A stretch of 64,000 nt of DNA, taken from Candidatus Poribacteria bacterium. GTDB lineage: Bacteria; Poribacteria; WGA-4E; WGA-3G. Below are positions 635-62,110 of this stretch, one piece after another. The translations under genes were made by a program, and so were the position numbers. The stretch lies in NCBI GenBank assembly GCA_965205015.1, contig OZ242029.1, forward strand, positions 4,960,001-5,024,000, given 5' to 3'. The notes beneath the pieces are model-generated. The model made no database searches, was not told where the DNA came from, and saw nothing but the letters and a program-made list of their open reading frames with translations. Within the stretch, counting starts at the first letter, position 1. Every line of letters starts with the position of its first letter.

Positions 635-1333
635 ATGATGAAATCTTTGCTGATTGGATTGGGCATTTTTCTCTTTACTTTCTCTGGTTGGACAGGAACA
701 TTTGTGGAGACCTTCGATGACAACGGAGATATTGAAAAGTGGCAAGAATTGATTATTCCTGGTGCAGAGCCGGGTTCTTGGAAGATTATTGATGGCGAAC
801 TTCATGCAACAAGTCCTGAGGGTTTCACTCGTTTCCTTGTGACCGGGGATGAAAGGTGGCAAGATTACGTCATTGAAGTTGATGTTAAGCCGCTCGAAAA
901 ACACGGGCTTGGAAATATCGCGATTGCCGCGCGGGTTAAGGGAACTTGGGCGGTAGGCGGTGCAATTGGCGATCTACCTTTCCCTGTACCTGTACCAATC
1001 GCGACTTGTTTTGTCGGAGATTTTGAGCGTAAGAAATTTAATATCCTCGGCTTTGGAGCCAGTCCATTATTAGAATTAGAGCAGTGGTCTACTCTGAAGT
1101 TGAGGGTTGATGGAAATACCTTTACCTTCTGGCTAAATAATGAGCAAATTCTGGAAACCGTAAATGAGGAAGCTGACTTACTCACAGGGGGAGTAGGTTT
1201 AGGTCTGGCTAATTATACAGCGCGCTTTGATAATATGGTAATTACTGGCAACGGTATCCCAAACAAGGGTAAATTATCAGTAGCACCTCAGGCGAAACTC
1301 GCTACGACGTGGGGACAGTTGAAGCGGTTTTAG
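635..1333 (+). CDS. Secreted DUF1080/concanavalin-like domain protein with C-terminal KLATTW tail
   Basis: Signal peptide; motifs FVETFDD, WKIIDGEL, WQDYVIEVDV and GGVGLG..ARFDN; ends SVAPQAKLATTWGQLKRF; RBS AAGGAG upstream. Confidence 0.75.
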   Translation: MMKSLLIGLGIFLFTFSGWTGTFVETFDDNGDIEKWQELIIPGAEPGSWKIIDGELHATSPEGFTRFLVTGDERWQDYVIEVDVKPLEKHGLGNIAIAARVKGTWAVGGAIGDLPFPVPVPIATCFVGDFERKKFNILGFGASPLLELEQWSTLKLRVDGNTFTFWLNNEQILETVNEEADLLTGGVGLGLANYTARFDNMVITGNGIPNKGKLSVAPQAKLATTWGQLKRF

Positions 1334-1593
1334 AGAAACAGAATGACGGATAGCCCTGCTAAAATCTCCAACCCAGACACATCATCTCCACAAATTCAGG
1401 GACGATAGCAGATTGTATATCGCTGAAATTTTGTGTGTTAGGTTTTTATTAGGTATTGTAGCAGGATACTTCTGGTGATTGGGAGTCCATAGATAATTGC
1501 AGGGAACGTATAGACGGCGACCAGCGTGAATTTTATGACATCGGATGGGAACTTGAAAACGGAGAACTTGAAAGTGAGTGGAGGTACGGTGTT

Positions 1594-1737
1594 ATGGCAG
1601 AAAGAGTGATTGTTGTCACTCGAATTGGACGGATAGGTGGCTTATGGATATTTCCTGCTCTCGGCCTGATCTTGGGTTTTTCACAAGAGATCCCCAATCT
1701 TCGGGGATTGCCTCAAGAAACGGAGGAATTACTTTGA
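1594..1737 (+). CDS. Possible 47-aa small ORF with a hydrophobic core (or part of a pseudogene)
   Basis: GGAGG lies 9 nt before ATG1594. Translation MAERVIVVTRIGRIGGLWIFPALGLILGFSQEIPNLRGLPQETEELL. Confidence 0.25.
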   Translation: MAERVIVVTRIGRIGGLWIFPALGLILGFSQEIPNLRGLPQETEELL

Positions 1738-1875
1738 CATCCCGAACGCAAAAATAGCAGTGGGCACTCGCAGTCCTCTTACTCTATCGTACAATTCATT
1801 TTTCCAATTTTAAGTGATTTTTTTTAAAACCTGCGGATTAAACCCCGTAGGTTTTATTTTTATTGGAGCGAAAAA

Positions 1876-3717
1876 ATGGATAGCAACAACACACATTCCC
1901 CTAACACAGCATCAGAAACTCGTCCGTCCGCGCTAAAGACGTTGCGCCGTTTTTTCTTTGTGTCGTGGCGAGTGAGTCCATTCGGAGCCATCGCGCAGGC
2001 ACTTTTGACACTCATCCACGGACTTATCCCTATTGGTATCCTCTGGGCAAGCCGGGGGCTGGTGAACCTCATCACAGCCATCCTTGCGCAGGAGGCAGAA
2101 CCCAGCTTAGAGACCGCAGCACCTTGGGTGATTGCACTCGTCCTTTTGGCGACGCTCAGAAATATCAGTGGCACTTATGACGGCTACCTGCGATGGAAGA
2201 TGCAGAACCGTATTAAAGTCCATCAACAGCACGCCTTGATTGAAGCTGCGACACATATCGACTTCGCCCTGTTCGATCAGCCGCAAACCTACGATCTGAT
2301 ACAACGGGCGCGACAGGCACTGGACCATCGACTCACCAATTTTCTGCGGTTTCTCACGGAGATCGGACAACTCTGCGTAACACTCGTGGGATACGGTGTT
2401 CTCCTCTGGATCGCGGATCCGCTGCTCGTGCTTGTGGTGGTGTTGCCCGCAATCCCTTCGGCTTGGTTCAAAGTTAAAACAGCCGAGAAGCGATACATCT
2501 ACGATTACCATACAACCCCCGTCCGTCGTATGATGGATTACATGATCGGTCTACTCCTCGGTTCATCATCTGCACAGGAGGTCCGACTCTATGGACTCTT
2601 TGATCGCTTTTTTGGACGCTGGCGTACAAACCATCGTCAATGGCGGAAAGAATCCGTTTCAATGATTTGGACGGAAATAAGAGCCTCTATCGGCATAACG
2701 ATCGCCGAAATCGTTGCTTATGCGATAGCAATCGGTATACTTGCGGCGCGCATTGTAGACGGTGATCTCACACTCGGAGATTACGTTGTGCTTACCGGTG
2801 CAGCGGCAACCTTTCAAGGAAATATGGAGGGCTTGCTGGGAAGCATACAAAGCATATTTGTAGACCTACCCCTGCTTCGCGACTTGCATTTCTTCTTGGC
2901 GCGCGCGGAAAAGACGCGCACACAGGCAGGCACTGAAACATTTCCGAAGCCCTTACAACAAGGCGTGGAGGTTCGTAATTTACGCTTCCGATACCCACAG
3001 GCAACCGACGATGTACTACAGGACATAAACTTTCACGTGCGTCCCGGGGAAGTCGTGAGCATCGTGGGTGTCAATGGTGCGGGAAAATCGACACTCATCA
3101 AATTGCTGCTCGGTCTCTACCAACCCGATGACGGAACAATCCGCTATGATGGCGTAGATGCGGCATCAATTGCGCCAGAACAGATTTCCCTTAACTGTGC
3201 CGCTGTTTTCCAAGATTTCACGCGGTTCCGTCGACCCGTGCGGGAGGAACTCGTGCCGGGACCGCCGGGTCTCCAGATTGACGACGATACGCTCTGGCGC
3301 GTCATCAACGCCGTTGGCATTGAGGACCGTTTTCAAACGCTTCCACACGGCTTAGATACATATCTTGACCCTTCCCTCGGCGAAGAGGGAGAGGGTGCCG
3401 AGTTATCCGGCGGAGAATGGCAAAAAGTTGCGCTTGCGCGGGCTTTGGCACGAAACCCGCAAGTCCTCGTCCTCGATGAACCGACCGCTGCCTTGGATCC
3501 GCAAGCCGAAGTTGAACTCTACCAACGTTTTGTCGAACTCGCAGCAGGTAGAATGACGTTCCTGATTTCACACCGAATCGGATCCGCCCGTCTTGCCGAT
3601 CGTATCTTGGTATTGGATGCAGGTCGTATTGTTGAAGACGGCACACATGAGACGTTGCTTGCCAAGGATGGACGCTACGCCCAATTCTTTAGAGCACAGG
3701 CGCACTGGTATCAGTAG
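1876..3717 (+). CDS. ABC exporter, fused permease/ATPase (MdlB-like, peptide-export type)
   Basis: N-terminal TM region; Walker A GVNGAGKST; signature LSGGEWQ; Walker B VLVLDEPT; H-loop ISHR. Confidence 0.93.
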   Translation: MDSNNTHSPNTASETRPSALKTLRRFFFVSWRVSPFGAIAQALLTLIHGLIPIGILWASRGLVNLITAILAQEAEPSLETAAPWVIALVLLATLRNISGTYDGYLRWKMQNRIKVHQQHALIEAATHIDFALFDQPQTYDLIQRARQALDHRLTNFLRFLTEIGQLCVTLVGYGVLLWIADPLLVLVVVLPAIPSAWFKVKTAEKRYIYDYHTTPVRRMMDYMIGLLLGSSSAQEVRLYGLFDRFFGRWRTNHRQWRKESVSMIWTEIRASIGITIAEIVAYAIAIGILAARIVDGDLTLGDYVVLTGAAATFQGNMEGLLGSIQSIFVDLPLLRDLHFFLARAEKTRTQAGTETFPKPLQQGVEVRNLRFRYPQATDDVLQDINFHVRPGEVVSIVGVNGAGKSTLIKLLLGLYQPDDGTIRYDGVDAASIAPEQISLNCAAVFQDFTRFRRPVREELVPGPPGLQIDDDTLWRVINAVGIEDRFQTLPHGLDTYLDPSLGEEGEGAELSGGEWQKVALARALARNPQVLVLDEPTAALDPQAEVELYQRFVELAAGRMTFLISHRIGSARLADRILVLDAGRIVEDGTHETLLAKDGRYAQFFRAQAHWYQ

Positions 3718-3777
3718 AAATTGCTCACAAGAATGGGACCCGTCTGTTCTGATCAAACCGTAAGGAAGAATTAAAAA

Positions 3778-5625
3778 ATGCGAAACGTTAAAGAAACATT
3801 GAAGACATGGGGATCCGTCGTTAAGGAAAGCGTCGTCGCCTATATCCGAACCTTTTCGATCACTTGGCAGAACGGTTCATTCGCACTCTTGGGTGTGTTG
3901 CTCCTCACGCTGTTGCTCGGTATTGTGCCTGCTGCTCAGTTTTTTGTGACGGAACGTTTAGTCAACGCAATCACTGCCGCTATAGGTGATGCCGACTGGT
4001 GGAAACAGGTCGTTCCGTGGTTGATAGGTTTGATCGGTTTGCAAATTCTTAGCATTTTTGTCGATCATTTACGGGAACCGCTGCGTCTTCACGTCGGCGC
4101 CAACATTGAGACATGGATGAATGAAAATATCGTACGGACATCCAATACAATAGAGCTGACTGAATTCCAGACCCCAGAATTTCAAAACGCGCTGGCGCGA
4201 GCACGTGCAATGTCGGGTATAGAACTCGATGAGATTGTCTGGTGGATTTTTGACAGCCTCCAACAATTAGTCAGTGCCGTTACCCTCGGTATCGTCCTCT
4301 GGCGTTATCATCCGTTGCTGGCACTGCTCCCTATGATCACAGGCTTCGCTTCTTGGTGGAGCGGTTCACGTTTTGCTGCCAGTGCTTACAATCTTGATGT
4401 AGAACAGACACCGCAACGACGGGAACGAGATGCATTAGAAGGAATTCTGACGGATCGCGGTGCCGGCAAAGAAATTCGGTTATACCAAGCACAGGACCTA
4501 TGGATAACGCGCTGGCGAAATTTATGGACGGCGTTAATAGATGAACAACAGGTAATTGAACGCCGCAAATTCTTCGCACACCTTGCGATCGACATCGCAC
4601 GCGGGTTGTTATACGCGTGTTCGCTCATCCTCTTACTGCTGGAAGTCTTTCGTGGTGGATTGACTGTCGGCACCTATATTGCCGCTGCTGCCGCCCTCGT
4701 TCAATTGGATGGTATTTGGAACGAGATTACCGGTTATTTTCAGTGGATAGGAAATGAGATGCGTCGTTTGTCGGGAGACCTGTACCCATTTTTAGATCGC
4801 GGCTTAGACACAATCAAAGCAAAGATAGGCGGCGAACACCCTTCAGAATCTCACACGAATCCATTCCAGACCCCTGAAGAACCCCCATATCTTCGGATAG
4901 AAAATGTTTCGTTCCTTTATCCACATACGCAAGTCCCTGTGTTAAATCACATAAACGTGACTTTGAAAAAAGGGGAGCGAGTCGCATTGGTAGGACCCAA
5001 CGGGGCAGGGAAAACGACCCTGGCACGCGTGCTGTTGGGACTCTATCGTCCACAGACAGGCACAATTCACGTAGGGGATGTCCCATTAGACGAAGAGAAT
5101 CGTCAAGCGTGGTTGACGCATTGCAGTGCTGTTTTTCAGGACTTCACCAGCTACCACCTCACCGCCCGGGAAAACATTATCTTTGGAGATTTAGAACATC
5201 CCGAACGTATGGAAGAGGCATCAATTGCGGGTGGCGCAGCTTCGGTTGTTGAAGGACTCACAGAAAGTTATGAGACAATGCTCGGTCCCACTTTTGGCGG
5301 GCGCGACCTCTCCGGCGGTGAATGGCAGCGTCTCGCAACAGCCCGGAGTTTCATGCGGGAAACCCCATGGCTTGTTGTCCTCGATGAACCGACTGCTGCG
5401 CTCGATCCACTCGCTGAACAGGCGATCTATGAACGATTTATCGAACGGAGTGCAGAACGCACATCGGTGTTAATTTCGCACCGTCTCTCCTCTGTACGCA
5501 CCTGCGATCGGATTCTTGTCATCGATAACGGGACAATTGTTGAGGATGGGGACCATGAGACGCTGTTGGCAAGGGGCGGACTTTATGCCCAGTTTTTCAG
5601 AGCACAAGCGCAATGGTATCTTTAA
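3778..5625 (+). CDS. ABC exporter, fused permease/ATPase; paralogue and likely heterodimer partner of 1876-3717
   Basis: GPNGAGKTT, LSGGEWQR, VVLDEPT, ISHR; C-terminus YAQFFRAQAxWY shared with the upstream gene. Confidence 0.93.
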   Translation: MRNVKETLKTWGSVVKESVVAYIRTFSITWQNGSFALLGVLLLTLLLGIVPAAQFFVTERLVNAITAAIGDADWWKQVVPWLIGLIGLQILSIFVDHLREPLRLHVGANIETWMNENIVRTSNTIELTEFQTPEFQNALARARAMSGIELDEIVWWIFDSLQQLVSAVTLGIVLWRYHPLLALLPMITGFASWWSGSRFAASAYNLDVEQTPQRRERDALEGILTDRGAGKEIRLYQAQDLWITRWRNLWTALIDEQQVIERRKFFAHLAIDIARGLLYACSLILLLLEVFRGGLTVGTYIAAAAALVQLDGIWNEITGYFQWIGNEMRRLSGDLYPFLDRGLDTIKAKIGGEHPSESHTNPFQTPEEPPYLRIENVSFLYPHTQVPVLNHINVTLKKGERVALVGPNGAGKTTLARVLLGLYRPQTGTIHVGDVPLDEENRQAWLTHCSAVFQDFTSYHLTARENIIFGDLEHPERMEEASIAGGAASVVEGLTESYETMLGPTFGGRDLSGGEWQRLATARSFMRETPWLVVLDEPTAALDPLAEQAIYERFIERSAERTSVLISHRLSSVRTCDRILVIDNGTIVEDGDHETLLARGGLYAQFFRAQAQWYL

Positions 5626-5692
5626 TTTTACCTTGCGGATCAGGAAAGTGAGTTAGGATTTTAACGTTTTTCGTGTTCGAGTCGAAGAAACA
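5623..5692 (+). repeat. Dispersed intergenic element (TAATTTTACCTTGCGG family) starting at the stop codon
   Basis: TAATTTTACCTTGCGGAT...TTAAYGTTTTTCGTGTTCGAGTYGAAGAAA is shared with the minus-strand copy at ~24000-24066. Confidence 0.75.
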
Positions 5693-6574: not shown

Positions 6575-6617
6575 AGATGACCTCTCCTCTCTTTTTCAAC
6601 ATAACTTACACAATATC

Positions 6618-6903
6618 TATCTTCAGGACTTACGCAAAATCAGCGGATTCGGTTTATATGACGCAATCGGTGCGGTTAGATGAAGATTAATTTTTTAATT
6701 CGGTAATATGCGGGCAGGCACAAGACCTGCCCCTACAAGGTCTTTTTTGGGATAGGTCGGTAATATGCGGACAGGCACAAGACCTGGGGAAACACCCAAG
6801 CAAAAACCCCCTACAATGTCTTTTTTGGGATAGGATTACCGAAATATTTATTTAAACTCCATGAAACCGCACCTACCGCGGAAGTGCGTCAGTCCTATAT
6901 CTT
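6618..6903. mobile_element. Nested MITE/REP composite with a 6-bp target-site duplication
   Basis: TATCTT at 6618-6623 and 6898-6903; outer TIRs CAGGACTTACGCA / TGCGTCAGTCCTA; inner 28-bp imperfect TIRs; two tandem REP-bearing units. Confidence 0.8.
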
Positions 6904-7948: not shown

Positions 7949-7951
7949 TTA

Positions 7952-19166: not shown

Positions 19167-19995
19167 AATGAAAGAATGATGATGTTGTTCAATCCTTAGC
19201 CTAATAGTACTTTTTCATCTGTGCCCAAGTGACGGCTAACTTCCCGCGGGCATCAACAGATAGCACCCGTTCCCACGGGATATTCTTTCCTCTGGAATCG
19301 GCTTGATGTATATCATCAAAGTTTGGATGTCCCCATCCACCGCTATTGTTATCCACAACAACAATTTGGGCGGTCTTGCCTTGAAATTCGGAGACATCCC
19401 ACTCTGCCCGCGCCATCGTTTCGGTGTTGTTCCCCGTCGATGTCCGCACGACTTTCCCTTTAATCTCAAGGTTAACACTACACGGCGCGGGGTCATCCTT
19501 CCAGGGGTGATTGCCGCCCCCGATGAGGAAGTTCATCGTTTTTCCGATAATCGTGAACTCGATTGAGGTGAGGGTGCCTTGCGGTCCATCGCCCTGCGTG
19601 GCACCTGGATTCTGTCCGAGTTTTTTCCCTTTATCTGGACCTTGGTACTTTTCGTATAAACCTAACCACCAATCGCCTTGATGTTCAGAGGGCTGACCGC
19701 GGTTTCGGGCCGTTGGGTTATCTCCCCAGGTAGGTTGGAAATCGAAGGCAACGTCGTCTTTCTCCCAATCCGTGAGGTCGCCCGTCTCGAAGTCATTGTT
19801 AAACGCCCGTGCCGAGGCGATGTTAAGAGGCAGAACCAAGAGTATTAGGAGGACGGAGGGAATCATGAGCGGGAATACCATTTTTTTCATGAGATGCGTC
19901 TCCTTCTGTTTGTGAAAAGTTGTATGCTTCAGGTCATTTAGACAGGAACTTGTGAACACACGTCTGAAAGTTGAACAACATCATCACTTTTCATT
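19167..19995. repeat. Inverted repeat pair bracketing the gene at 19201-19890
   Basis: TGATGATGTTGTTCAA (19177-19192) and TTGAACAACATCATCA (19971-19986) are perfect complements; an outer AATGAAA/TTTCATT match extends them. Confidence 0.85.
19201..19890 (-). CDS. Secreted beta-sandwich (carbohydrate-binding-like) protein with C-terminal KLAVTW tail
   Basis: Signal peptide from ATG19890 (AAGGAG RBS); NNDFETGDLTDW; GTLTSIEF..NFLIGGG; ends SVDARGKLAVTWAQMKKYY. Confidence 0.7.
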   Translation of the reverse strand: MKKMVFPLMIPSVLLILLVLPLNIASARAFNNDFETGDLTDWEKDDVAFDFQPTWGDNPTARNRGQPSEHQGDWWLGLYEKYQGPDKGKKLGQNPGATQGDGPQGTLTSIEFTIIGKTMNFLIGGGNHPWKDDPAPCSVNLEIKGKVVRTSTGNNTETMARAEWDVSEFQGKTAQIVVVDNNSGGWGHPNFDDIHQADSRGKNIPWERVLSVDARGKLAVTWAQMKKYY

Positions 19996-38589: not shown

Positions 38590-39315
38590 TTACCAAGAAC
38601 GGACGAAAGTCATTCTGCCGGTGATCCCTGTTTCATCATCGCCTTTCTGGGTTTCAAATCCCACAAAGACGCCGAGGGTGTTATTTTCGCCATAGCCGAC
38701 ATTGGCACGGAGACCGGGGGCTAAACTACTGAGTCCGCCTTCGGTTAAATCAAGCGTCACCTCTACTTGGGGACCAACAGAGAGCGTGTCATTTAGCGAC
38801 AGCAGCACAAAATTGCGGAGGTAGAACGAATCGCCTGCTTCTTCATCAAACATAGAATTGAAGAACCCCTGTATCCATGACTCAAAGTAGATGGAACCCG
38901 CGGTGAGATAGGTAAACAACTGCGGTGCAATTAAGGAAGAAGGACCATTCGGGGCAGCGTAATCGAACCCAATACCGACCATTGGAAGGAAACTGAGGGA
39001 CAGGGAATCGCTGTCAACGACCGGAATGCCGATTCCGACGTCTAACTCACCGAATGTGTCAACGACGTAAATATCGGTGTCCAGAGAGAGATCGCCGAGG
39101 AAGCTTGGGGAATGACTGGCACCCACCCAGATCTGTGTTCCTAAACTATCTGTATCTGTCCGAAACCATCCGGAAACACCAGAAGTCTCTTCTTCTGCTG
39201 CCATCTCTTCACCCGCTTCATGCGCATCTGCATAAACCATTGAAATACTACCAACTGCAAAAATACAAACCATTACTAACAAACGAACCAACCAAAACGC
39301 ATGCGTTTTCATCAA
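38590..39315 (-). CDS. Predicted outer-membrane beta-barrel (porin-like) protein
   Basis: Signal peptide (VYA|DAH); acidic linker; alternating strands; ends TFVRSW. Confidence 0.65.
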   Translation of the reverse strand: MMKTHAFWLVRLLVMVCIFAVGSISMVYADAHEAGEEMAAEEETSGVSGWFRTDTDSLGTQIWVGASHSPSFLGDLSLDTDIYVVDTFGELDVGIGIPVVDSDSLSLSFLPMVGIGFDYAAPNGPSSLIAPQLFTYLTAGSIYFESWIQGFFNSMFDEEAGDSFYLRNFVLLSLNDTLSVGPQVEVTLDLTEGGLSSLAPGLRANVGYGENNTLGVFVGFETQKGDDETGITGRMTFVRSW

Positions 39316-39732: not shown

Positions 39733-41139
39733 ATGCTGAAATTTTCAACAAAACATTGCCCAAAAAAGATGCAAATCGTGCTTTTGAGCGGTGTTGTACT
39801 GTTCGGAACAGCACTCCGATTTTGGAACTTAGGGCAGTGGAGTTTCTGGATTGATGAGGTTTTCACCGTTCGAGACGCCCAACACCTTTCAGTCGAAAGT
39901 TGGCGAGTGATCCCAAACCCGCTTCCGTATCTTGCGGTGAAGTTATCAACCTCAATTGCTGGCAGTCGTGAGTGGGGGGCGCGTTTAATTTCGTGCCTGG
40001 TCGGCATCGCCTCCATTCCGATGGCTTTTGGGTTAGGCCGAACCCTCTTCAATTGGCGGATCGGACTCCTGAGTAGCGCATTTGTGGCATGCTCCAGTTG
40101 GCATCTGTTTTGGGCACAAAATGCGCGTTATCCAGTCTTTACCTTTTTCTTTGGTGTCCTGACAGCGTGGTTTTTTTACACATCCCTTGAACGCGATTCA
40201 ACACTTTTAACCATAGGTGCGCTCGTTTCCTGTTTCTGTTTAATCCTTTCGCACACCCTCGCCGTTGTGATCGTTCCGGCATTCGCTGCGTATGCCGTGA
40301 TGTGTCTATTAGAAAAATCTGACAGAAAGCGGTGGCTGAATCTTCTCATCTTCTTTATCCCCTTCGCGCTGCCGGTGCTTGCATTAGCACTTCCACAAGC
40401 TCGAGGTTACCTGTTCTCCGGATGGGGCCGCAACGTATGGCAGCGGAGTCCACTCTATATCGTGCTAACACTCGTCCAAGGCGTGAGTATTCCAGTCGCT
40501 GTTACCGCTTTTTTCGCTCCCATCGCGACGCGATTCAACAAAGCCACGCTCTTCTTACTCTGTTATGCGGGGGTACCGCTGATCCTTTTTCTGATCGCAT
40601 CGCAGCTCCAAAACGTCGCCGGTTATTACCTATTTTGGACGATACCTGCCTACTTTATTCTGGCAGGCGTTGCGTGTGAACGGGTTTGGCAAGTAATAGA
40701 AGGTAGGTCTGGAAGAATACTCGGTATGCTCGTGCCGTGCGTACTGCTGGTGACGCTCCTGTCGCAGGACTATCTCTATTTCAAAATCGAAAATGGTGGG
40801 AGACCGAAATGGCGGGAGGCGTTTGAAGTCGTACAAGTAGAGAAGAAACCTACCGATAAAGTGGTACTCTCAGAACCTGAGATGGGTAGGTATTATCTGC
40901 CAGAATTGACCCCGATCTACATCGGGGGGTTATTAGAGGATTCGGAAGCGTTTGAAAGGGAGTGGGAAACTTCGGGAAGAGAACGGTTATGGTTTCTTGT
41001 AGATGTGGCGAGTTTTAATGTCTTCGATGGAAATGAAAACGTCCGCAATTGGATTCGTCAACGCGGACATATCGTAAAAACACTGCCTGCCTTTTCACGG
41101 GCGAAAGACAGGACAATTCATGTGTATCTGTTGGAATAG
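39733..41139 (+). CDS. GT-C fold membrane glycosyltransferase (PMT/ArnT-like, family 39/83)
   Basis: LRFWNLG..SFWIDE, EWGARL and AQNARY motifs; many TM segments. Confidence 0.8.
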   Translation: MLKFSTKHCPKKMQIVLLSGVVLFGTALRFWNLGQWSFWIDEVFTVRDAQHLSVESWRVIPNPLPYLAVKLSTSIAGSREWGARLISCLVGIASIPMAFGLGRTLFNWRIGLLSSAFVACSSWHLFWAQNARYPVFTFFFGVLTAWFFYTSLERDSTLLTIGALVSCFCLILSHTLAVVIVPAFAAYAVMCLLEKSDRKRWLNLLIFFIPFALPVLALALPQARGYLFSGWGRNVWQRSPLYIVLTLVQGVSIPVAVTAFFAPIATRFNKATLFLLCYAGVPLILFLIASQLQNVAGYYLFWTIPAYFILAGVACERVWQVIEGRSGRILGMLVPCVLLVTLLSQDYLYFKIENGGRPKWREAFEVVQVEKKPTDKVVLSEPEMGRYYLPELTPIYIGGLLEDSEAFEREWETSGRERLWFLVDVASFNVFDGNENVRNWIRQRGHIVKTLPAFSRAKDRTIHVYLLE

Positions 41140-41281: not shown

Positions 41282-42022
41282 CTACCATCTACGGGTAAAA
41301 TTCATTCTACCGGTAAGTCCTGTTTGACCTTCGTCCTTTTTGGTTTCATACCCAACATATATGCCGAGTGTATTATTCTCGCCATAACCGATGTTCACAC
41401 GTCCGCCGAAATTGAGAGCCCACAATCCACCCCCCTCACCGAGACCGAGCACGGATTCAAACTGTGGACCCACCGCGACAGTTTCGTTTAAAGCGTATGT
41501 AAGGTACGTCCGGTTGTAGACTTCATCAAGGGTTTCGCTATCAAATATGGTTTTGATTGTGCTGATTGTCCAATGGAAGCCGAAGATTTTACCGGCGGGT
41601 AGGATCACAAAGATTTGTGGGTATAAGGCATAGGGGCCATCTGGACTGACATAATTGAACCCGACACCGAGCATCGGTGTTAGCAGCAGTGCCATGCTGT
41701 CATTCGCGATAACAGGGAATGAAACGCCCATATCAAACTCGCCCAAATGATCGTTCACATAGATATTAGAATCAAATGAAATACCACCGCTGAGCGGATG
41801 ACTTGCACCAACCAAAAAATAGGTGCCTAAACTATCAACATCAATTTGGAACCAGCCTGTTATCTTCGGTTTTTCTTCTGCTTTTTCACCTTCCATTTCA
41901 TGACCATCGGCGAAGGCAGTAGAGAAGTTGGTAATAGATATTATACAAATTAGTACCCCGATAGCAATTAACCGAAAGCCATTATTGATAGCCCGTGCAA
42001 GGCAGATGAAATGATTGTTCAT
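41282..42022 (-). CDS. Predicted outer-membrane beta-barrel; paralogue of 38590-39315
   Basis: Shared blocks GWF..D.DSLGT...VGASH, GEFDMG and NIGYGENNTLG; ends NFTRRW. Confidence 0.65.
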   Translation of the reverse strand: MNNHFICLARAINNGFRLIAIGVLICIISITNFSTAFADGHEMEGEKAEEKPKITGWFQIDVDSLGTYFLVGASHPLSGGISFDSNIYVNDHLGEFDMGVSFPVIANDSMALLLTPMLGVGFNYVSPDGPYALYPQIFVILPAGKIFGFHWTISTIKTIFDSETLDEVYNRTYLTYALNETVAVGPQFESVLGLGEGGGLWALNFGGRVNIGYGENNTLGIYVGYETKKDEGQTGLTGRMNFTRRW

Positions 42023-44283: not shown

Positions 44284-45732
44284 TTACATCGATTCCTCTT
44301 CCAGACTTCTGAATATCTCATCCAGAAAGATACGCACCCCACTCTCATCGTCCTGTTGGTACTGTTGAAGTTGGCGTTCCAACGCTCGGATAGAAGGGGC
44401 GTCACCGATTTTGGCAACTGCGTCGACGAGGGTGAGTTGAATCGCGGATTCAGTGCTATTTTCCAAGGCATTAATCAATCGATCTCTCGCCTTAGATCCA
44501 CCAATGCTCCCGAGTGCGGAAGCAGCGATATCCTTCGTGCTGGTGTCTCCGTTTTCAAACGCAGTAATAAGCGTATCAACAGCGGGTTCACCAATCTGAC
44601 TGAGTGCTAATCCAGCTTGGAAGCGGATGCCCGGAATTTCCACAGCATTTTCAAGAACCGCGATGAGGGCATCAATGGCAGAAACCGGTTTGAGAATTCC
44701 GAGTATAGAAAGACAAGCGCGTCGAATTTCTTGCTCGGGTTCCACTTCAATTTGGATGTATTCTTGCGCGAGTTCAGCGAGTTGCCCTTCGTTAATTTTT
44801 TGATAAAGTGCTTCGGACCTGTGTCTGAATTGCGTCCCGAAGGGTGCCTTAAGGGTGGCAGTATTCTCGGTTCTATCCACAGTGAGTAACCCCAGGATCG
44901 CAGCAGATTCTAATTGTTGTGCCTGAAGACTATCGGCTGGCAGTTGGTTGACGTCCGCGCTTTGAAACTCCTGAAAAAGGTCGTTAAGGACGCTCAATTC
45001 AACGAGGTGTTGAAGACTATTAATTGCCTCTTTCCGGAGCGAGAACTCGGTGCTATTTTTGAAGAGGTCCACGAGTGGTTCAATCGCCCGGACATCGCCT
45101 AAATCGCCGAGTGCGTCCACAGCGGCAATCTTCACACCTATGAGCTCAGTTGTTCGGAAAGTAAATTGCCTTTTAGCAAATTTGTCGAGTGTCTTCTTGT
45201 AATCATCAAGGCTATAAATTTTGCGTTCATCGACAATTTTCTCAACGATGTCCCCTACCTGAATATCGGTATTTGCCGCCGGGGTACCGGGTAAAACTTC
45301 CTTGACCCGCACAGTTCCACTGCCTTCAACGCTGAGTCCGACCTTATCCCCCTGTCTGCGGAGCGCGATCCGCAGGGGGGGTTTATCTTTTAGATAAAGA
45401 ATGAAGTTATTATCCTCATCGAGTGCCTCCTTCATTGCCCCGTTAAAGTCGCCGACCTCTCGAACAGGATATTCTGCGATGACATACGAGATGAGTTCAC
45501 CCGTCTCCAGTTGCGCTCTATCAGCGGGCCCGTTGGGGGTCGTATTCAAAACAACGACACCACTGGTTGACCAGCGGTCCTTCAGGTCGCTGTCTAACTG
45601 CTGCACCTGCATTTTCAGGTGTTCATCGTAATGCTGATTATCACACCCGAGTCCGAGCATCAGTACAAAGAGGAGTGGCACGATAAACACCGAGGGGTGA
45701 GGTTTGTTAAACCGTGTTATTTTTATTCGCAT
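44284..45732 (-). CDS. Lipoprotein with two PDZ domains and HEAT repeats
   Basis: Lipobox LGLGC; PNGPADRAQLETGELI and PGTPAANTDIQVGDIV; repeated AxALGxxG motifs. Confidence 0.78.
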   Translation of the reverse strand: MRIKITRFNKPHPSVFIVPLLFVLMLGLGCDNQHYDEHLKMQVQQLDSDLKDRWSTSGVVVLNTTPNGPADRAQLETGELISYVIAEYPVREVGDFNGAMKEALDEDNNFILYLKDKPPLRIALRRQGDKVGLSVEGSGTVRVKEVLPGTPAANTDIQVGDIVEKIVDERKIYSLDDYKKTLDKFAKRQFTFRTTELIGVKIAAVDALGDLGDVRAIEPLVDLFKNSTEFSLRKEAINSLQHLVELSVLNDLFQEFQSADVNQLPADSLQAQQLESAAILGLLTVDRTENTATLKAPFGTQFRHRSEALYQKINEGQLAELAQEYIQIEVEPEQEIRRACLSILGILKPVSAIDALIAVLENAVEIPGIRFQAGLALSQIGEPAVDTLITAFENGDTSTKDIAASALGSIGGSKARDRLINALENSTESAIQLTLVDAVAKIGDAPSIRALERQLQQYQQDDESGVRIFLDEIFRSLEEESM

Positions 45733-45781: not shown

Positions 45782-46666
45782 TCAGTTAAGAGGGATGACG
45801 ACATCCCGGCTGCTCTGTTCTTTTAGAGCGTCTAAGAGCGGTTCGACAACTTTTTCGTCACCGAGGACTGCCAATGCCCGAATCGCATCAACACGCAGCG
45901 AGGACCCCTTATTCTGCACAATTTTGACTAATTCCGGCACAGCGCCCCCCCCAATTCTGCCGAGTGCTTCCACAGCAAGTTGGCGCACTTCAGGTTCCTC
46001 CCGATCGCGTTTCCATTTGGCAGACCCGGACTCAATTAAGGCGGCGAGTGCTGGAATTGCTTGTTCACTTCCAACCTCTCCGAGCGCCTTGACGGCATTC
46101 AAGCGAGTTTCCATTCTTCGATGATCCAAAAGTTTTACCAAAATAGGCACAATCGTCCCTGGATCCTCCTTCCCGAGATGTCCAAGTATCCAATGCGCAT
46201 TATGTCTATCGCGATTGTCGCTCGACTTAATCGCCTTTTGGAGTTGGCTGAGGAGTCGATTCCGGTCGCCTTGCTTATAGACCCGCTTCAGCGCATCAAG
46301 CGCAGCATTTTGGACATCCAAGTCATCATCACGGAGTGTCTCAAAAACGAGTCTTTCGAGGTACTTCCGCTGTTCGGCTTTATATGCGAGGAACATCTGC
46401 TCACCTCGCGCAGGGATCGACGCTTCCTGCCAATCAGTGGTATTCGGCTCGTAAAATTCTTGCGAGTTGTAGTATCCAAGCAGATAGTGTGCCTCAGCGC
46501 TATCAATCTGTTGCTGGAGCGCAAGTTTAAATTCTCGGACGGCGCGTTCCTCTTTGCGTCGTTTATCCGATTTAATCAGTTCTTTACCCTTCGCGAGGTT
46601 CTCGTTCTGAGTACCGCACCCAATTACAAAGAGTGTCAGCACAAGGGCAAGCCAGATTTTCTTCAT
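45782..46666 (-). CDS. HEAT-repeat lipoprotein with a TPR-like N-terminus
   Basis: Lipobox VIGC; AEAHYLLG; RLNAVKALGEVG; RQLAVEALGRIG. Confidence 0.78.
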   Translation of the reverse strand: MKKIWLALVLTLFVIGCGTQNENLAKGKELIKSDKRRKEERAVREFKLALQQQIDSAEAHYLLGYYNSQEFYEPNTTDWQEASIPARGEQMFLAYKAEQRKYLERLVFETLRDDDLDVQNAALDALKRVYKQGDRNRLLSQLQKAIKSSDNRDRHNAHWILGHLGKEDPGTIVPILVKLLDHRRMETRLNAVKALGEVGSEQAIPALAALIESGSAKWKRDREEPEVRQLAVEALGRIGGGAVPELVKIVQNKGSSLRVDAIRALAVLGDEKVVEPLLDALKEQSSRDVVIPLN

Positions 46667-52008: not shown

Positions 52009-52791
52009 ATGAATTATCTGGAACGCTATTGCACTTGGGTATGTACTGTCCTGATCCTGCTCAATCTATCATTGACAGCGTTGGGACAGGCAGAAAAGGC
52101 GGAAACTCTTGTTGGACACTGGACATTTGAGAAAGGGGTCGAACAGGAAGATCTTACGGGTAACTTTGCTGATATTAAGCTCATGGGTGCTACAATCGAG
52201 GACGGTCAATTGAATGTGGATATTGGCAAGTGGGCAATCGCCAGTGGATATAATGGACCGGATATCGGAGAAAAGACGTTGGTGTCGTGGGCAATCATGG
52301 ATAATCTTGATGTCCAGAAAGGCTCAATACTCACCATCGACCGTCTCTCCGATCCGACATTCGACGCGATCGTCTTTGGGGAACGTCAGCCTCATCGTTG
52401 GATGGCAGGTAGCGGTTGGTTTCACCGCACCCAAGACCCGAAACCTGGGTTCGAGGAAAAGAAAACGGGAGAGCTGATTATGATGGCGATCTCGTACGAA
52501 GATGACGGTGGCACGGCGCGGGTACAGATATACCGGAACGGAGACAAAATTGGCGACTATACATTCGGTCAATTCGTGACCTTTGAGAACAACGATGCCG
52601 AGGCAATCTGGGGGAAGCGCCACGGAGGTTTGGGTGGAGGTCCGGGAGATCTCGACGCGCATATTGAGGATTCACGCATCTACGCTTCCGCTCTCAGTGA
52701 GGCAGAGATCAAAAACTTGCTGCCTGATACGCTTGATGTGGAAGCGCACGGTAAAATCGCGACGACCTGGGCAAGACTGAAAACAGAGTAA
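52009..52791 (+). CDS. Secreted LamG-like jelly-roll protein with C-terminal KIATTW tail
   Basis: GGAGG RBS; LVGHWTFE; IEDSRIYASALSEAEI; ends DVEAHGKIATTWARLKTE. Confidence 0.78.
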   Translation: MNYLERYCTWVCTVLILLNLSLTALGQAEKAETLVGHWTFEKGVEQEDLTGNFADIKLMGATIEDGQLNVDIGKWAIASGYNGPDIGEKTLVSWAIMDNLDVQKGSILTIDRLSDPTFDAIVFGERQPHRWMAGSGWFHRTQDPKPGFEEKKTGELIMMAISYEDDGGTARVQIYRNGDKIGDYTFGQFVTFENNDAEAIWGKRHGGLGGGPGDLDAHIEDSRIYASALSEAEIKNLLPDTLDVEAHGKIATTWARLKTE

Positions 52792-55086: not shown

Positions 55087-55220
55087 CAGTCCCTATTTCA
55101 CTATCATCACCCGTTGTGTTGCGGTGAAATCTCCCGCGACGAATTGTAAAAAGTAGATGCCACTCGAAACGGGTTCGCCTGCTTCATTCCGCCCATCCCA
55201 ATAGACGGCTTGCTCGCGTG

Positions 55221-55286
55221 TTCTGATATGCGGAGCAAGTCTCCATTTTCTATACCAGACCAACCTTTTTCCTGAAAGGGCACCAT
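55221..55286 (-). pseudogene. Fragment of a DUF5615-type PIN toxin
   Basis: QEKGWSGIENGDLLRISE resembles the GWxGxxNGxLL motif; the flanking sequence is unrelated. Confidence 0.45.
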
Positions 55287-55299
55287 GAAGAGATACCCA

Positions 55300-57467: not shown

Positions 57468-57794
57468 GAATGCCTCCTATAGAGCGTAATTGCCGTCTTT
57501 CTCACGCATATGGCTTGCCAAGAATATAGTATCGAATTATGAATTTCAGTGTAGCAGATTCCGATTTAGTTGTCAAGATGATCCGAAAAACGACTCGGGC
57601 TATTTAGTCCTCGGATTTTTAGGGAGTTCGGTTGGAAAATCGCGACGACAAGAATAGTTTCTGTTTGCAAATTATGCCGAAAACGTGCTATGATACTGTC
57701 AAACCCAATCAGGTGACATACCCCGCAGCAACGGCATATCGCAAATGTTAAATAAGTAGAAGGTAGACCCGGCAGCGTCCTAAAAGGAATCACA

Positions 57795-59618
57795 ATGAAC
57801 ATCCGCGCCCAACTGACATTCAGGTACATCGGCATTGTGCTTTTAGTATTGCTCGCCATGTATTTCTATCTTGCTACGATGCTGAAAGACTCCATGAGCA
57901 ATCACATCACCAGCGAATTGGAAGTTCAGGCAGCATTAACCCGGGAATTCCTCATCGAAGAACTCCCTCCCCAGGATAACTTTACTTACGACCTCATAGA
58001 CCCGCTCGTCGATAGACTCGGAAAGGCGAATAACGCCCGTGTGACCTTCATCGACTTAGATGGTGTCGTTTGGGGTGACACAGAACGGGATGGACAGGCA
58101 CTCCGTGCAATGGACAACCACCTCACGCGTCCAGAGATCCAGGATGCCATCAAGAAGGGGAACGGGATTCGAGACCGCTATAGCAATACAACCCAGACAG
58201 GATTTCGTTATTTTGCTTTGCCAATACACCGCCCTGTAGGCACAGAAATCTCACCAGATGGAGAAGGCACTTTGATTGGTATCTGCCGCGTCGCGCTTCC
58301 GATGGCGGCCGTCAATACAGCGATTGATAATCTCCGGGGGATGGTTCTCATTGCGAGTGTGGCGGGATTAATTCTCGCAATCGTATTTAGTATCTTTAGC
58401 ACCGGTGTCATCACAAAACCGATTGAGAAATTAACTCAGGTGACACAATCGCTCGCTGCAGGCAACATAACCTCGCGCGTCCCTGTCGATTCCGGCAACG
58501 AACTCGGCCAACTTTCGCAGAACTTTAACCTCATGGCAGACAGGATACAGGAACAGATTGACGAGATATCCGAAGAACACCGGCGTTCGGCAACCATTTT
58601 GACAAACATGGGCGAAGGGGTCCTACTCGTGAACGGTGCGTCTGAAATTACCTACGCCAACCCAACAGCTATCTCTATGCTGGCGCTCCCCGATGTTTAT
58701 ATCGGCAAAGCCCTCATCGAAATCAATCGGATTCCAGAACTACAAGCACTCCTGAAAAAGGCAGAACAAACAGAAACCATCGCCTTCGCAGAAATCCAGC
58801 TGGGGAACCTGAGAGAGCCGGAGGCAGAGGTCACGGTTGTTCCGGTTTCCGCAGGTCAAGAATACGTCATCGTTATCCATGATGTCACAAAGGAACGGCA
58901 ATTAGAGCGGATTCGCGCTGACTTCGTGGCGAATGTCTCACACGAACTCCGAACGCCGCTCACAACGATCCGCGGTTACGCTGAAACCTTACTCAGTGAG
59001 AATTCCGTTCGGACAAAGACAGGCGAACAGTTTATCGTGAAAATTCTCAATCACTCCGCCCGACTGACAAGATTAGTCTCGGACCTGTTAGAACTCTCGC
59101 GGCTCGAGTTGGGTGAGGTAGAATTAAAATGCTCGCTCTGTCATCTCAATACTTTCTACGAACCAATTTTAGACGTGTTTGAACCCTTATTAGAGGAATC
59201 AGGATTGGTCTTAAAATGGGAGATTTCTGAAAAGTTCCCGGCGGTTAACATAGATCAACAACTTTTCATGCAGGTTTTTGTGAATTTGATTGACAACGCC
59301 ATCAAATACACGCCGGATGGCGGTACAATTACGGTTTCGGCAGAGATCTGCTCGAGTGAAATCATTGAAGATGCCGATACGACAGCGAAAGAAGTTATTG
59401 TGCATGTAAAAGATACGGGGATCGGCATCCCGATGGAATCTCAACTTCGCGTGTTTGAGCGGTTCTATCGTGTCGATGAAGGACGTGCCAGAGAGATGGG
59501 CGGCACCGGATTAGGTCTGGCGATTGCCAAACATATTGTCCTCAGTCACAACGGAAAAATATGGTTGGAAAGCACCCTTGGACAAGGTAGCATCTTTCAT
59601 GTCGCCCTGCCTCTATAA
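57795..59618 (+). CDS. PhoR-like sensor histidine kinase (Cache-HAMP-PAS-HisKA-HATPase)
   Basis: MDNHLTRPEI, DFVANVSHELRTPLT, NAIKY, FERFYRVD, GGTGLGLAI. Confidence 0.9.
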   Translation: MNIRAQLTFRYIGIVLLVLLAMYFYLATMLKDSMSNHITSELEVQAALTREFLIEELPPQDNFTYDLIDPLVDRLGKANNARVTFIDLDGVVWGDTERDGQALRAMDNHLTRPEIQDAIKKGNGIRDRYSNTTQTGFRYFALPIHRPVGTEISPDGEGTLIGICRVALPMAAVNTAIDNLRGMVLIASVAGLILAIVFSIFSTGVITKPIEKLTQVTQSLAAGNITSRVPVDSGNELGQLSQNFNLMADRIQEQIDEISEEHRRSATILTNMGEGVLLVNGASEITYANPTAISMLALPDVYIGKALIEINRIPELQALLKKAEQTETIAFAEIQLGNLREPEAEVTVVPVSAGQEYVIVIHDVTKERQLERIRADFVANVSHELRTPLTTIRGYAETLLSENSVRTKTGEQFIVKILNHSARLTRLVSDLLELSRLELGEVELKCSLCHLNTFYEPILDVFEPLLEESGLVLKWEISEKFPAVNIDQQLFMQVFVNLIDNAIKYTPDGGTITVSAEICSSEIIEDADTTAKEVIVHVKDTGIGIPMESQLRVFERFYRVDEGRAREMGGTGLGLAIAKHIVLSHNGKIWLESTLGQGSIFHVALPL

Positions 59619-59641
59619 AGAGGTTCTGTTAACCAATACGG

Positions 59642-60319
59642 CTAAATTTTCCATGTCTCCTGCGTGTAAGCCATCTCCCAAAAAAGGTACTCATAACGAC
59701 TACTCAGCAAGAAGTCGTTTTTCATCCGTTCTTTGGCAGAGGTGTTATACGCCGCGGTGAGATCGTTGAGCAGACGCCGCAGTGACACACCCAACGATAG
59801 GAATTCAGGAGACGCGTACATCTCAATCCACTCCTGGTAGAGCGGTTCCGGTGATCCCCCTTGTTCAGCAAGTGTCGTGCCGATCTCGGCGTAACCCCAC
59901 TGACACGGTAGAACACTGGCAACGATATTTGCTAAAGTCCCGACTTGAGCGACATCAAGCAGATGCCGGGTATACGCATGTGTCGTAGGTGCCATGGGTG
60001 CGGTCTCCATCTCAGCGGCGGAGATACCAAATTTCGCACAATACCCTCGATGCAAATCCATCTCGGTGTTCAGTGTCTCGTTGAGCAGTGTCGCAAACAT
60101 CGCCATTGTGGTTTCATCATGTGCCTTGATAACACCGTGCGCAAATACACGGCTGTAGTCCAACAGGAAGAGGTAATCCTGAATGAGGTAAAACTTAAAT
60201 TTTTCTGTGGGGAGACTTCCATCAGCAAGCCCCCGAACGAATGGATGCTTGAGGTCGGCTTCCCAAATCGGTGCAGCAACGCGTCTAAGTTCGTCGGTAA
60301 ATCGTCCATTTTGTGTCAT
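59642..60319 (-). CDS. tenA: Thiaminase II
   Basis: HPFV..L.DG.L, YLIQDY; catalytic Cys in LPCQWGY; EYLFW. Confidence 0.93.
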   Translation of the reverse strand: MTQNGRFTDELRRVAAPIWEADLKHPFVRGLADGSLPTEKFKFYLIQDYLFLLDYSRVFAHGVIKAHDETTMAMFATLLNETLNTEMDLHRGYCAKFGISAAEMETAPMAPTTHAYTRHLLDVAQVGTLANIVASVLPCQWGYAEIGTTLAEQGGSPEPLYQEWIEMYASPEFLSLGVSLRRLLNDLTAAYNTSAKERMKNDFLLSSRYEYLFWEMAYTQETWKI

Positions 60320-60394
60320 AATGTTGTTGAAACTCCTTAAAATATGCCATAATCTTTACTGTGTATCATCCCCTGACGAGCAAAGGATATCAAA

Positions 60395-61282
60395 ATGTTT
60401 GAAAAACTCGGAATCGTAACCAATATCTGGTCTGAAGAAATAGAAAACGGAGCGCGCTTCGATGAACTTATGGTAGAATTTGGCGCGAACGGATTTAAGG
60501 ATATGGAGGTCCGCGAAGGCGATTACCTGCGCACCTCCGAATTCGGGGAACTTATTGAACATCTCGAAGCCGCGATGCCTGAGTACACCGACACAGCATA
60601 CAAAACTATCTGTGACGCCGTATGGACAAAACACTCTCACGAAGCGAAGCATCCCACACTCTTTGCGGAGATTGCAGCGTTCGTTCAAAAAGCGTCTGGA
60701 CTCACCTTGAGTTATGCCATGTCCCATCCTTGGCTTTCATCGCCAAAAGACAGTGAAGCTGACACACAAGAGATTATTAGGGCGAAGAAGTTGGCATACT
60801 TACTCTGTCCAGCGCGCCCGCGGCTCCGACTCGTCGATCTCGACACGGAAGGGGACATTGACGCATCCGCAGCGATCGCCAATTTAAAGCATTATAATGC
60901 GCTTTTACCCGATTTTCCGATGATTTTTGCCGTGGAGAACGCCCGACAAACCGCTACATTGACCTTGAAGTTAGCCGTCGCGGGCGGTGCCAAACTGACT
61001 TACGACGAAACAAACACATACCGAGCAGACGGAACAACGGTGAACCCTCCTGACGAATTCTGGAGTGCTGTTAAAATGACGGATCTCACCTCGGTCCATT
61101 TCAAACAGAAAACGGAAGACGGTGTGCTCTCAGAAGTATGTGACGGCTTCGTCGACTTCCGGGCAATTGCTGAACGCTTGAAAACGCAAGACTATACCGG
61201 CGATCTGCTCCTTGAAAACACGCCGACTGCGCATTCTCTGCAAGATGCCCTACGGAGCCGAGAGTATCTGCTCAATTGCTAA
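60395..61282 (+). CDS. Sugar-phosphate isomerase/AP-endonuclease-2-like TIM barrel
   Basis: AVEN, TYD..N, VHFK, DGFVDF and LLEN metal-site pattern. Confidence 0.65.
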   Translation: MFEKLGIVTNIWSEEIENGARFDELMVEFGANGFKDMEVREGDYLRTSEFGELIEHLEAAMPEYTDTAYKTICDAVWTKHSHEAKHPTLFAEIAAFVQKASGLTLSYAMSHPWLSSPKDSEADTQEIIRAKKLAYLLCPARPRLRLVDLDTEGDIDASAAIANLKHYNALLPDFPMIFAVENARQTATLTLKLAVAGGAKLTYDETNTYRADGTTVNPPDEFWSAVKMTDLTSVHFKQKTEDGVLSEVCDGFVDFRAIAERLKTQDYTGDLLLENTPTAHSLQDALRSREYLLNC

Positions 61283-61300
61283 GTAAGACAGGTATTTTGC

Positions 61301-62110
61301 CTACATCCCCTTAAGTTTACCCCACGTGGTAGCAAGCTTGGCTTTCGGAGAAACTGGCAATATTGTAGCCAGTCCCTGTTCCCGAATCATCTCTGTCTCT
61401 TCAAAGGTAAGGGCAATACCGTTAAAAAGGGCGGCGTGCGTAATCGAAACCGCAAAAAAGCCACCGGGGAGTTTATTACACTCTAACAGACACCCCATGA
61501 GCAGCGGATACGCCTCTTGTGTCAAGTCATTTCCCTTGATAACCTTCACAGCAACTTCCTCGCCGTCCCTGTAGATAAAGGAGTCGGCATCGCGTGTGAC
61601 GACTGCAGCGACAAACTGCCACGTGTTAACCTCCATCGTTCCTGCGGGACTGATAATACTTCCGTTATCTGAGCCGTTTGCTGAGGTCTCCAAGCGGATC
61701 GCGCCAGGACCCGTGTCACCGATATCGAGAATCCAGCCGCCATTCCAGCACCACGCGCCTTTGGAGATGATACCTTTTCCATCGCCAGGTAAAGCCGGAT
61801 TCAACCATGCCACTAAGGTAAAATCGTTCTCTCCAACGTTGACGGTATCACTGTGCGGAATCTCAAGATAGTCGTCCTTACCATCAAATTTGAGGGCTGG
61901 ACCGAGATCACTATCTACCCATTCTGGGTCCCCTTCGATTGTTCCATCATTGCCGTTCCCCGAGTGATCTTTTACCGTGTTGCCTTTCCCTTCATCAAAA
62001 AGCCACGCGCCTGCCAAAGTGCCTAAATCTATTTCAGCATAACCCATCGTCCCTGAGGCAAGTAGCATCCCTACAAGAATCACGTATAGCCAATTCACAT
62101 TAACTTTCAT
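61301..62110 (-). CDS. Secreted LamG domain protein with C-terminal KLATTW tail
   Basis: AWLFDEGKG..VKDHSGNGNDG and ALKFDGKDDY; ends PVSPKAKLATTWGKLKGM. Start ATG62110 overlaps the upstream stop. Confidence 0.82.
   Translation of the reverse strand: MKVNVNWLYVILVGMLLASGTMGYAEIDLGTLAGAWLFDEGKGNTVKDHSGNGNDGTIEGDPEWVDSDLGPALKFDGKDDYLEIPHSDTVNVGENDFTLVAWLNPALPGDGKGIISKGAWCWNGGWILDIGDTGPGAIRLETSANGSDNGSIISPAGTMEVNTWQFVAAVVTRDADSFIYRDGEEVAVKVIKGNDLTQEAYPLLMGCLLECNKLPGGFFAVSITHAALFNGIALTFEETEMIREQGLATILPVSPKAKLATTWGKLKGM

Follow-up and report, generated by a model that had tools for sequence, protein, structure and literature searches.

The stretch of DNA analysed here (the window) is 64,000 nt long and comes from a Candidatus Poribacteria bacterium (assembly GCA_965205015.1, contig OZ242029.1, positions 4,960,001 to 5,024,000). 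Four of its genes code for small proteins with a signal-like N-terminus that end in a shared C-terminal tail, a tag of 17 residues placed just ahead of the stop codon, and this tag is the subject of the present analysis. The tail genes are surrounded by housekeeping genes. Their positions, and those of the tags, are as follows.

635..1333, + strand: tail protein 1, open reading frame (ORF) of 232 aa; signal-like N-terminus, 3-keto-disaccharide-hydrolase/DUF1080-type beta-sandwich, C-terminal tag
1274..1324, + strand: tag of protein 1, 17 residues, then 2 residues and stop; register taken from the Trp-aligned logo
19201..19890, - strand: tail protein 2, ORF of 229 aa (open to 19959); signal-like N-terminus, beta-sandwich core, C-terminal tag
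19213..19263, - strand: tag of protein 2, 17 residues, then 3 residues and stop
52009..52791, + strand: tail protein 3, ORF of 260 aa (open from 51934); signal-like N-terminus, Laminin_G_3 domain, C-terminal tag
52732..52782, + strand: tag of protein 3, 17 residues, then 2 residues and stop
61301..62110, - strand: tail protein 4, ORF of 269 aa (open to 62161); signal-like N-terminus, Laminin_G_3 domain, C-terminal tag
61310..61360, - strand: tag of protein 4, 17 residues, then 2 residues and stop

All four proteins end in K[LI]A[TV]TW[GA]xxK, followed by 2-3 residues. A strict regular expression applied to the six-frame translation of the window finds exactly four matches, all of them in these ORFs, and each lies 2-3 residues ahead of the stop; the ORFs all exceed 220 codons. 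At the DNA level, the corresponding 30-base back-translated IUPAC pattern matches four times, against an expectation of 0.00 from 100 dinucleotide-preserving shuffles. The four ORFs and their common tail are present as the initial annotation described them, and the motif is found nowhere else in the six frames. The signal peptides that it assigned to all four proteins agree with a hydrophobic, signal-like segment, recognised by a heuristic, at the N-terminus of each (4/4). Its description of the cores as dissimilar holds only in part. The Pfam results do differ, with 3keto-disac_hyd/DUF1080 in protein 1 (PF06439, 9.8e-13), none in protein 2, which has no NCBIfam family either, and Laminin_G_3 (PF13385) in proteins 3 (9.4e-07) and 4 (5.9e-14), but all four look like beta-sandwich domains of the lectin or carbohydrate-binding module (CBM) type, protein 2 weakly so. 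No sorting domain in Pfam or NCBIfam matches any of the four (E<=0.1). Genes 97-98% identical to that of protein 4 occur in metagenome-assembled genomes (MAGs) of Candidatus Poribacteria, including complete chromosomes of 5.1-5.8 Mb, and the tail is retained in 115 of the 120 listed homologues of protein 4 and in 117 of the 120 listed for protein 2.

Repertoire and carriers of the tag

Related Poribacteria genomes served as stand-ins for the window's own genome, and the counts of repertoire and anatomy given below are taken from them. In five such relatives the strict DNA pattern has 83-99 matches per genome (reversed-pattern control, 0), which bears out the large genome-wide repertoire that had been predicted from the four copies in the window. 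Across a wider sample it is present in 150/150 Poribacteria genomes, 1-115 times in each, with a single control match overall; the few genomes with only 1-6 strict matches still hold about 30 LamG proteins each, and the tails of these follow a shifted consensus (see below). Outside the phylum, the pattern occurs in 0/151 genomes from the phylum of a Phycisphaerae MAG, in 0/151 from the phylum of a Sphingobacteriales MAG (the Bacteroidota-phylum sample) and in 0/5 single genomes. Judged by this sampling, the tag is confined to the phylum Poribacteria.

A profile built from the tail alone (31 positions), compared with 1.84 billion representative proteins, gives 1,134 matches at E<=0.001, counted without taxon assignment. 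Among the best 150 of these, the core of the motif is present in 149, lies no more than 11 residues from the end in 142 of the 149, and is carried by no protein longer than 350 aa. Full-length proteins (200-350 aa) account for 33 of the best 150, while 116 shorter ones resemble gene fragments from short contigs. Searched against the ESM Atlas, the tail alone reaches a best score of 0.85, in clusters without names that offer no lead, and its profile gives only three chance-level matches to PDB sequences (best E 0.28), so that no solved structure has the tail.

The carriers were studied most closely in one complete genome (G005), in which the DNA around all 83 strict matches was examined. Full-length ORFs hold 75 of these matches and short, decayed remnants the other 8. 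A slightly looser expression gives 83 full-length carriers, with lengths of 210-338 aa (median 261). A hydrophobic N-terminal stretch is present in 82 of the 83, as it is in 33/33 of the full-length library proteins above, and the motif is evidently not one that is common on cytoplasmic proteins; a lipobox-like motif occurs in only one carrier. By Pfam, they belong to Laminin_G_3 (56), Laminin_G_2 (7), 3keto-disac_hyd (4), CBM9_1 (3), F5_F8_type_C (2), Pentaxin (2), CBM_4_9 (1) and LTD (1), and some match no family. The NCBIfam matches are limited to the LamG part of TafC (40/83) and three single matches, and neither database finds a sorting domain in any of the 83.

Despite their several folds, the carriers in G005 form one functional class, that of a single beta-sandwich module of lectin- or CBM-like type. 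No enzyme or large protein with the tag was seen, either among these 83 or among the best 150 library matches. The initial annotation spoke of diverse cargo, and this part of it has to be given up, as all carriers consist of a single small beta-sandwich of lectin/CBM-like type (210-338 aa). Given this single class of cargo, a docking tag for one type of module fits better than a general secretion signal. The tail was found on 0/13 LamG homologues (loci) outside Poribacteria and on 0/12 of the longer LamG homologues.

Tail genes in G005 are frequently organised in tandem arrays. At one locus (L034, about 737-744 kb) there are six tail-lectin genes within about 7 kb, interleaved with genes for a PhyH dioxygenase and a short-chain dehydrogenase, and several other loci have two or three in tandem. 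The loci of tail remnants include L086:346-477 and L128. One remnant that was inspected, near 4.835 Mb, is a LamG gene that stop codons and frameshifts have disrupted, and lies just downstream of a gene bearing a C-terminal domain (CTD) of type IX secretion (T9SS). Such decayed remnants point to birth-and-death turnover of the family.

Peptide, fold and a putative reader

The 83 full-length carriers of G005 define the consensus L-[AP]-V-[ED]-[PA]-x-[GD]-K-L-[AT]-T-T-W-[GA]-x-[LI]-K, with positions numbered from -12 to +4 around the invariant Trp (0). In all 83 it is followed by 1-9 residues before the stop, most commonly 3. W(0) and K(+4) are present in 83/83 copies and V(-10) and K(-5) in 81/83, and the full set of near-invariant positions consists of V(-10), [ED](-9), P/A(-8), K(-5), T(-1), W, G/A(+1) and K(+4). 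The tag leads into a short, Arg-rich end, the residues beyond the last Lys being mainly R, S, A and Q. Scored against its own position-specific scoring matrix (PSSM), the tag reaches 44 bits. The domains that carry it diverge to about 20% identity while the tail stays conserved.

A tail that always adjoins the stop codon might owe its conservation to the nucleic acid, with a DNA or RNA element (a recombination cassette, a terminator) at the gene's 3' end, or to a role as a nascent-chain arrest peptide, of which examples with Trp and Gly exist. The codons of the G005 tails speak against this. Where residues are identical, third bases agree at a rate of 0.28, which is about random, all four codons of Thr, Gly, Val and Pro are in use within the tails, and the 51-nt tail has a mean nucleotide identity of 0.59 beside an amino-acid identity of 0.55. 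With third bases agreeing in only 28% of pairs, it is the peptide rather than the DNA that is under selection, and strongly so, and the conservation of the tail acts at the protein level. A DNA-level element was rejected on these codon statistics, and there is no conserved downstream gene for an arrest peptide to regulate, so that this explanation is largely refuted and must be considered very improbable.

Lineages differ in the details of the motif. The consensus in G013 and G018 has shifted to S-V-D-P-x-G-K-[MAL]-A-[AV]-x-W-A-x-L-K, with Thr at -1 in 2/12 proteins of these two genomes compared with 80/83 in G005. Paralogues within one lineage shift the motif together, as would be expected if a single reader co-evolves with the tag. 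Some variants (G005 L168; G001 L166; G072 L165) are missed by the expressions used here, among them tails with Lys(-5) replaced by Ser or Asn and a 335-aa protein that keeps the W-G-x-I-R core in an otherwise divergent tail, so that the strict count understates the number of tails in a genome.

In the AlphaFold2 model of protein 4 (mean predicted local distance difference test score, pLDDT, 83.5) the core is confident to about residue 250, and residues 253-269 lie outside the fold at pLDDT 50-58, with no extra domain. The model of protein 2 has a mean pLDDT of 67, with the last 15 residues below 50. Taken over both models, the tail is found outside the domain at pLDDT 32-58. With Foldseek, protein 4 strongly matches jelly rolls of the ConA/LamG type, for example domain 4 of the arabinanase AbnA; matches to the lectin-like subdomain in the binding domains of clostridial neurotoxins are due to this general fold only. 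Protein 2 has weak matches to sandwiches of the CBM and MAM types. That the tail could be an integral strand of the core was checked with a negative outcome and the idea was rejected, the tag being present on at least six Pfam families and unpacked in the two models. As modelled, the tail is joined to the domain by a short flexible linker and is not part of its fold.

Both models draw the tail as a helix, from about -5 to the C-terminus. This recalls the C-terminal amphipathic helices of PBP5 and MinD, which are in-plane membrane anchors, and the tail might likewise be a short amphipathic anchor lying in the plane of a membrane leaflet or bound to lipopolysaccharide, needing no protein receptor. 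A helical wheel, drawn by reasoning, puts L(-4), W(0) and L/I(+3) on the same face, bordered by K(-5), K(+4) and the Arg-rich end, and lineages with A, V or L for the two Thr residues retain the hydrophobic periodicity. However, the helix is drawn at pLDDT 32-58 only, and a stretch of ten residues, three of them hydrophobic, would anchor a protein weakly. Lipid-binding helices usually tolerate substitution, and the near-invariant positions of the tag are stricter than such helices usually need, which argues for a specific partner. Anchoring without a receptor is considered unlikely.

Less likely still is that the tail acts on its own protein, whether it covers the glycan site as a lid, supplies a strand for oligomerisation, is recognised by a periplasmic protease in maturation or turnover, or is modified at Thr, Lys or Trp. 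The conserved V-[ED]-[PA]-x-[GD]-K ahead of the core could be a cleavage site, the Thr-Thr-Trp cluster and the two invariant Lys residues would suit modification, and the window contains GT-C-type glycosyltransferase genes (PMT_2, 39733-41139). Against these points, one identical lid or oligomer interface is hardly to be expected across at least six folds, the tails are unpacked in the models, and the tail genes show no link to a protease or modifying enzyme.

The reading preferred here, held with reserve and at a little less than an even chance, is that the tail is an autonomous C-terminal peptide tag that is read in trans, by a putative reader, for docking. The proteins would be exported by the Sec pathway and the lectin would then fold in the periplasm, leaving an exposed tail to be bound in trans by one conserved component of the envelope. 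Lectin 'heads' would in this way be tethered to a common 'socket' and displayed at the cell envelope or surface. In view of the alternation in L-x-V and L-x-T-x-W, the favoured mode of binding would be the insertion of a strand or peptide into a groove of the partner, as in donor-strand complementation. A sponge symbiont would in this way have a glycan-binding repertoire that is modular and evolves fast. It is a more tentative proposition, and a doubtful one, that any of the approximately 100 interchangeable lectin heads of a genome could dock, plug into socket, on one co-evolving envelope receptor. The suggestion that the tag marks a new docking or sorting pathway with machinery of its own is to be taken with the same degree of doubt.

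Several observations weigh against docking in trans. No reader or machinery for the tail was found in the surveys of neighbouring genes, in the searches for exosortase and sortase, or among PorV-like candidates. No gene is universally conserved as a neighbour of the tail genes, which lie scattered. Both AlphaFold2 models show the tail as a low-confidence helix, not as the strand that the favoured mode of binding would call for. Signal peptides were judged solely by a hydrophobicity heuristic and not by SignalP, and the apparent restriction to one phylum rests on two other phyla and five genomes, the phyla nearest to Poribacteria lying outside the sampling. A PorV-like neighbour was rejected as universal reader, since this paralogue is present in 23/81 genomes and adjoins a tail gene at 13/23 loci, mostly in close relatives. 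Finally, an association seen in G005 is not matched by a narrower look across 30 genomes. In G005, 8 of the 20 ASPIC genes have a tail gene no more than 2.5 kb away (permutation mean 1.95; 0/5,000 permutations reached 8), while in the cross-genome set a tail gene is present at only 3/30 ASPIC loci. The proximity of ASPIC and tail genes is a lead, not a result. The initial annotation proposed a sorting signal read by unknown machinery. This stands in so far as the motif is neither common on cytoplasmic proteins, nor an integral strand of the core, nor a match to a characterised sorting family, but as no machinery was found, the term 'sorting system' stays conjectural.

The commonest neighbours of tail genes in G005 are GFO/IDH/MocA oxidoreductases, PhyH dioxygenases, and pairs of exported TPR and FG-GAP/ASPIC proteins, all from families that are abundant in Poribacteria. 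In these pairs an exported TPR protein (about 530 aa) is accompanied by an exported FG-GAP/ASPIC-UnbV protein (about 560 aa); they adjoin tail-lectin genes, several of them on the same strand, at loci L030, L051, L053, L054, L061 and others. A second PorV-like neighbour in G005 was set aside, as it does not adjoin a tail gene in G001 or G072. Genes with a CTD are not enriched beside tail genes, with about 6-7 adjacencies against about 7 expected when coordinates were compared by eye.

Some other genes of the window may be mentioned. Two paralogues of 241 and 246 aa (38590-39315 and 41282-42022, both on the - strand), with signal-like N-termini, a C-terminal Trp and no Pfam family, flank the PMT_2-type GT-C glycosyltransferase gene (39733-41139), and may be small outer-membrane proteins. 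Two adjacent genes (44284-45732 and 45782-46666, both on the - strand) code for lipoprotein-like HEAT-repeat proteins, the first of which also has a PDZ domain. PDZ is a type of domain that binds C-terminal peptides; no connection of this protein to the tail has been shown. Next to tail protein 4, a gene for a 627-aa polytopic membrane protein without Pfam family (62107-63990, - strand) has a stop that overlaps the start region of the tail gene. Two metatranscriptome runs cover the region in small parts, and the lack of cover elsewhere carries no meaning. A contig of 2,721 nt from an RNA library (about 90.5% identity) covers 60385-63102, including the gene of protein 4, and comprises three genes; as these lie on both strands, and carry-over of DNA is possible, transcription is not shown.

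If the wider plug-and-socket reading is correct, the tag would represent a new class of bacterial C-terminal signal, and its carriers a modular glycan-recognition surface with rapid turnover for life inside sponges. Modules of the lectin/CBM type are the kind of protein expected in the recognition of host glycans or the capture of polysaccharides. With a hundred or so proteins per genome, the tag is on roughly 2% of the genes in a dominant, uncultivated phylum of sponge symbionts, and short C-terminal tags have earlier led to whole machineries (sortases, exosortases, T9SS). Practical handles are the 44-bit motif for annotating metagenomes, the peptide itself as bait for the reader, and the lineages with T-T or with A/V as a natural co-variation series for locating the reader by computation.

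Comparison with known C-terminal tag systems

Type A CTDs of the T9SS (TIGR04183) number 27-73 per genome in the five Poribacteria tested (G005, G001, G013, G018 and G072). They are highly uniform, end exactly at the stop, and are mostly found on ORFs of 450-4,000 aa. The same genomes have a SprA-like ORF of 2,220-2,320 aa and PorU-like ORFs of about 2,100 aa (three, often beside PorV-like genes), both below curated cut-offs, as well as 12-17 matches to PorV_fam per genome, several of them above the curated cut-off in 5/5 genomes. GldM was not found, in a search that had no positive control. The excerpted text of a single-cell study of 2014 describes CTD-like domains in Poribacteria yet no Por structural genes (PMC3909097). 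Exosortase (PF09721) is found in 0/5 of the genomes (control genomes matched once) and sortase (PF04203) in 0/5 (3 control genomes matched). A T9SS-like apparatus is therefore the only known reader of C-terminal tags seen in these genomes.

The abundance of CTDs and of PorV-family proteins raises the question of whether the tail is a minimal outer-membrane export signal for this T9SS-like apparatus, replacing the CTD of about 85 residues and recognised by way of a PorV-family shuttle paralogue. Some precedent comes from Flavobacterium, for which one study describes specialised shuttles of the PorV/PorP type that read distinct classes of CTD (PMC12618676). The tail sequences give little encouragement, as the PSSM of the tail scores 39 poribacterial CTDs at the level of shuffles (maximum -15.3 vs -16.9 +/- 5.0), with no signal at any offset, and an idea based on resemblance by eye, that the tail is a relic of a CTD, was dropped on the same test. 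No match to TIGR04183 or to Pfam's Por_Secre_tail is found on the 4 window proteins (E<=0.1) or the 83 carriers of G005. The tail is moreover absent from the 151 genomes of the Bacteroidota-phylum sample, CTD cargo is mostly large whereas tail cargo consists only of small lectins, and the apparatus itself is uncertain, with its SprA-like and PorU-like members below curated cut-offs and GldM not found. Export by a T9SS-like apparatus is thus judged unlikely, on a par with the membrane anchor. If it did apply, the smallest signal known for that system would have to be redefined; a new reader, on the other hand, would mean a new envelope sorting or docking pathway.

Tag and CTD are alike in being C-terminal, on proteins with Sec signals, in many copies per genome and in the same genomes. 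The CTD is a beta-sandwich of about 85 residues ending at the stop, in contrast to 17 residues that are unstructured in the models and are followed by 1-9 more, and its cargo is mostly large and multidomain, where the tag is confined to small lectin-like proteins. PEP-CTERM and LPXTG signals share with the tail the order of a short signature (here V-[ED]-[PA]), a more hydrophobic stretch and a basic end, and also a large paralogous cargo. However, the stretch between V-[ED]-[PA] and the Arg-rich end has about 9, mostly polar residues and so cannot be a transmembrane helix; the tail logo contains no LPXTG-type motif, and no model of these families matches. The beta-signal of outer-membrane barrels differs in that the tail has no terminal aromatic residue (it ends in R, S, A or Q) and that the cores are soluble jelly rolls.

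In chaperone-usher pili, and in the type V pili of Bacteroidia with their C-terminal strands, terminal donor strands plug subunits into their neighbours. The tail proteins may resemble such subunits in their short terminal extension with alternating hydrophobic residues and in its disorder in the free subunit, and many of them have a LamG lectin head. The alternation is visible in L(-12)/V(-10) and in L(-4)/T(-2)/W(0), although the models draw this part as a low-pLDDT helix. No pilin domain, acceptor subunit, usher or chaperone was identified for the tail proteins. Passages on a haloarchaeal Tat fimbria describe its tip adhesin, TafC, as a LamG head joined via a modelled short donor strand (PMC11821415). 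That strand is N-terminal, and the likeness to the tail proteins is in the LamG domain only.

Dockerin and cohesin offer a parallel in one conserved C-terminal docking element on many modules, a plug for a socket. The dockerin is a duplicated, Ca-binding domain of about 60-70 residues, mostly on enzymes, as against 17 residues on binding modules only, and neither dockerin nor cohesin has a Pfam match among the 83 carriers of G005. The cargo-loading peptides of encapsulins, the encapsulation peptides of bacterial microcompartments and the anchors of PBP5 and MinD are C-terminal peptides of 10-20 residues that follow a flexible linker and are sufficient for targeting. These act in the cytoplasm or at the inner membrane and have unrelated sequences, whereas the tail proteins carry export signals.

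Searches of the literature turned up no paper that describes the tail or the poribacterial lectin family, although Tables S8/S9 of PMC3909097, on domain families with signal peptides, might list the genes. Going by the profile searches, with no match in Pfam or NCBIfam and no resemblance to the T9SS CTDs of the same genomes, the tail belongs to none of the known tag families, and the possibility that it represents an already characterised sorting family was answered in the negative. Overall, it lacks the defining features of each of the known C-terminal tag systems, while resembling them in its working.

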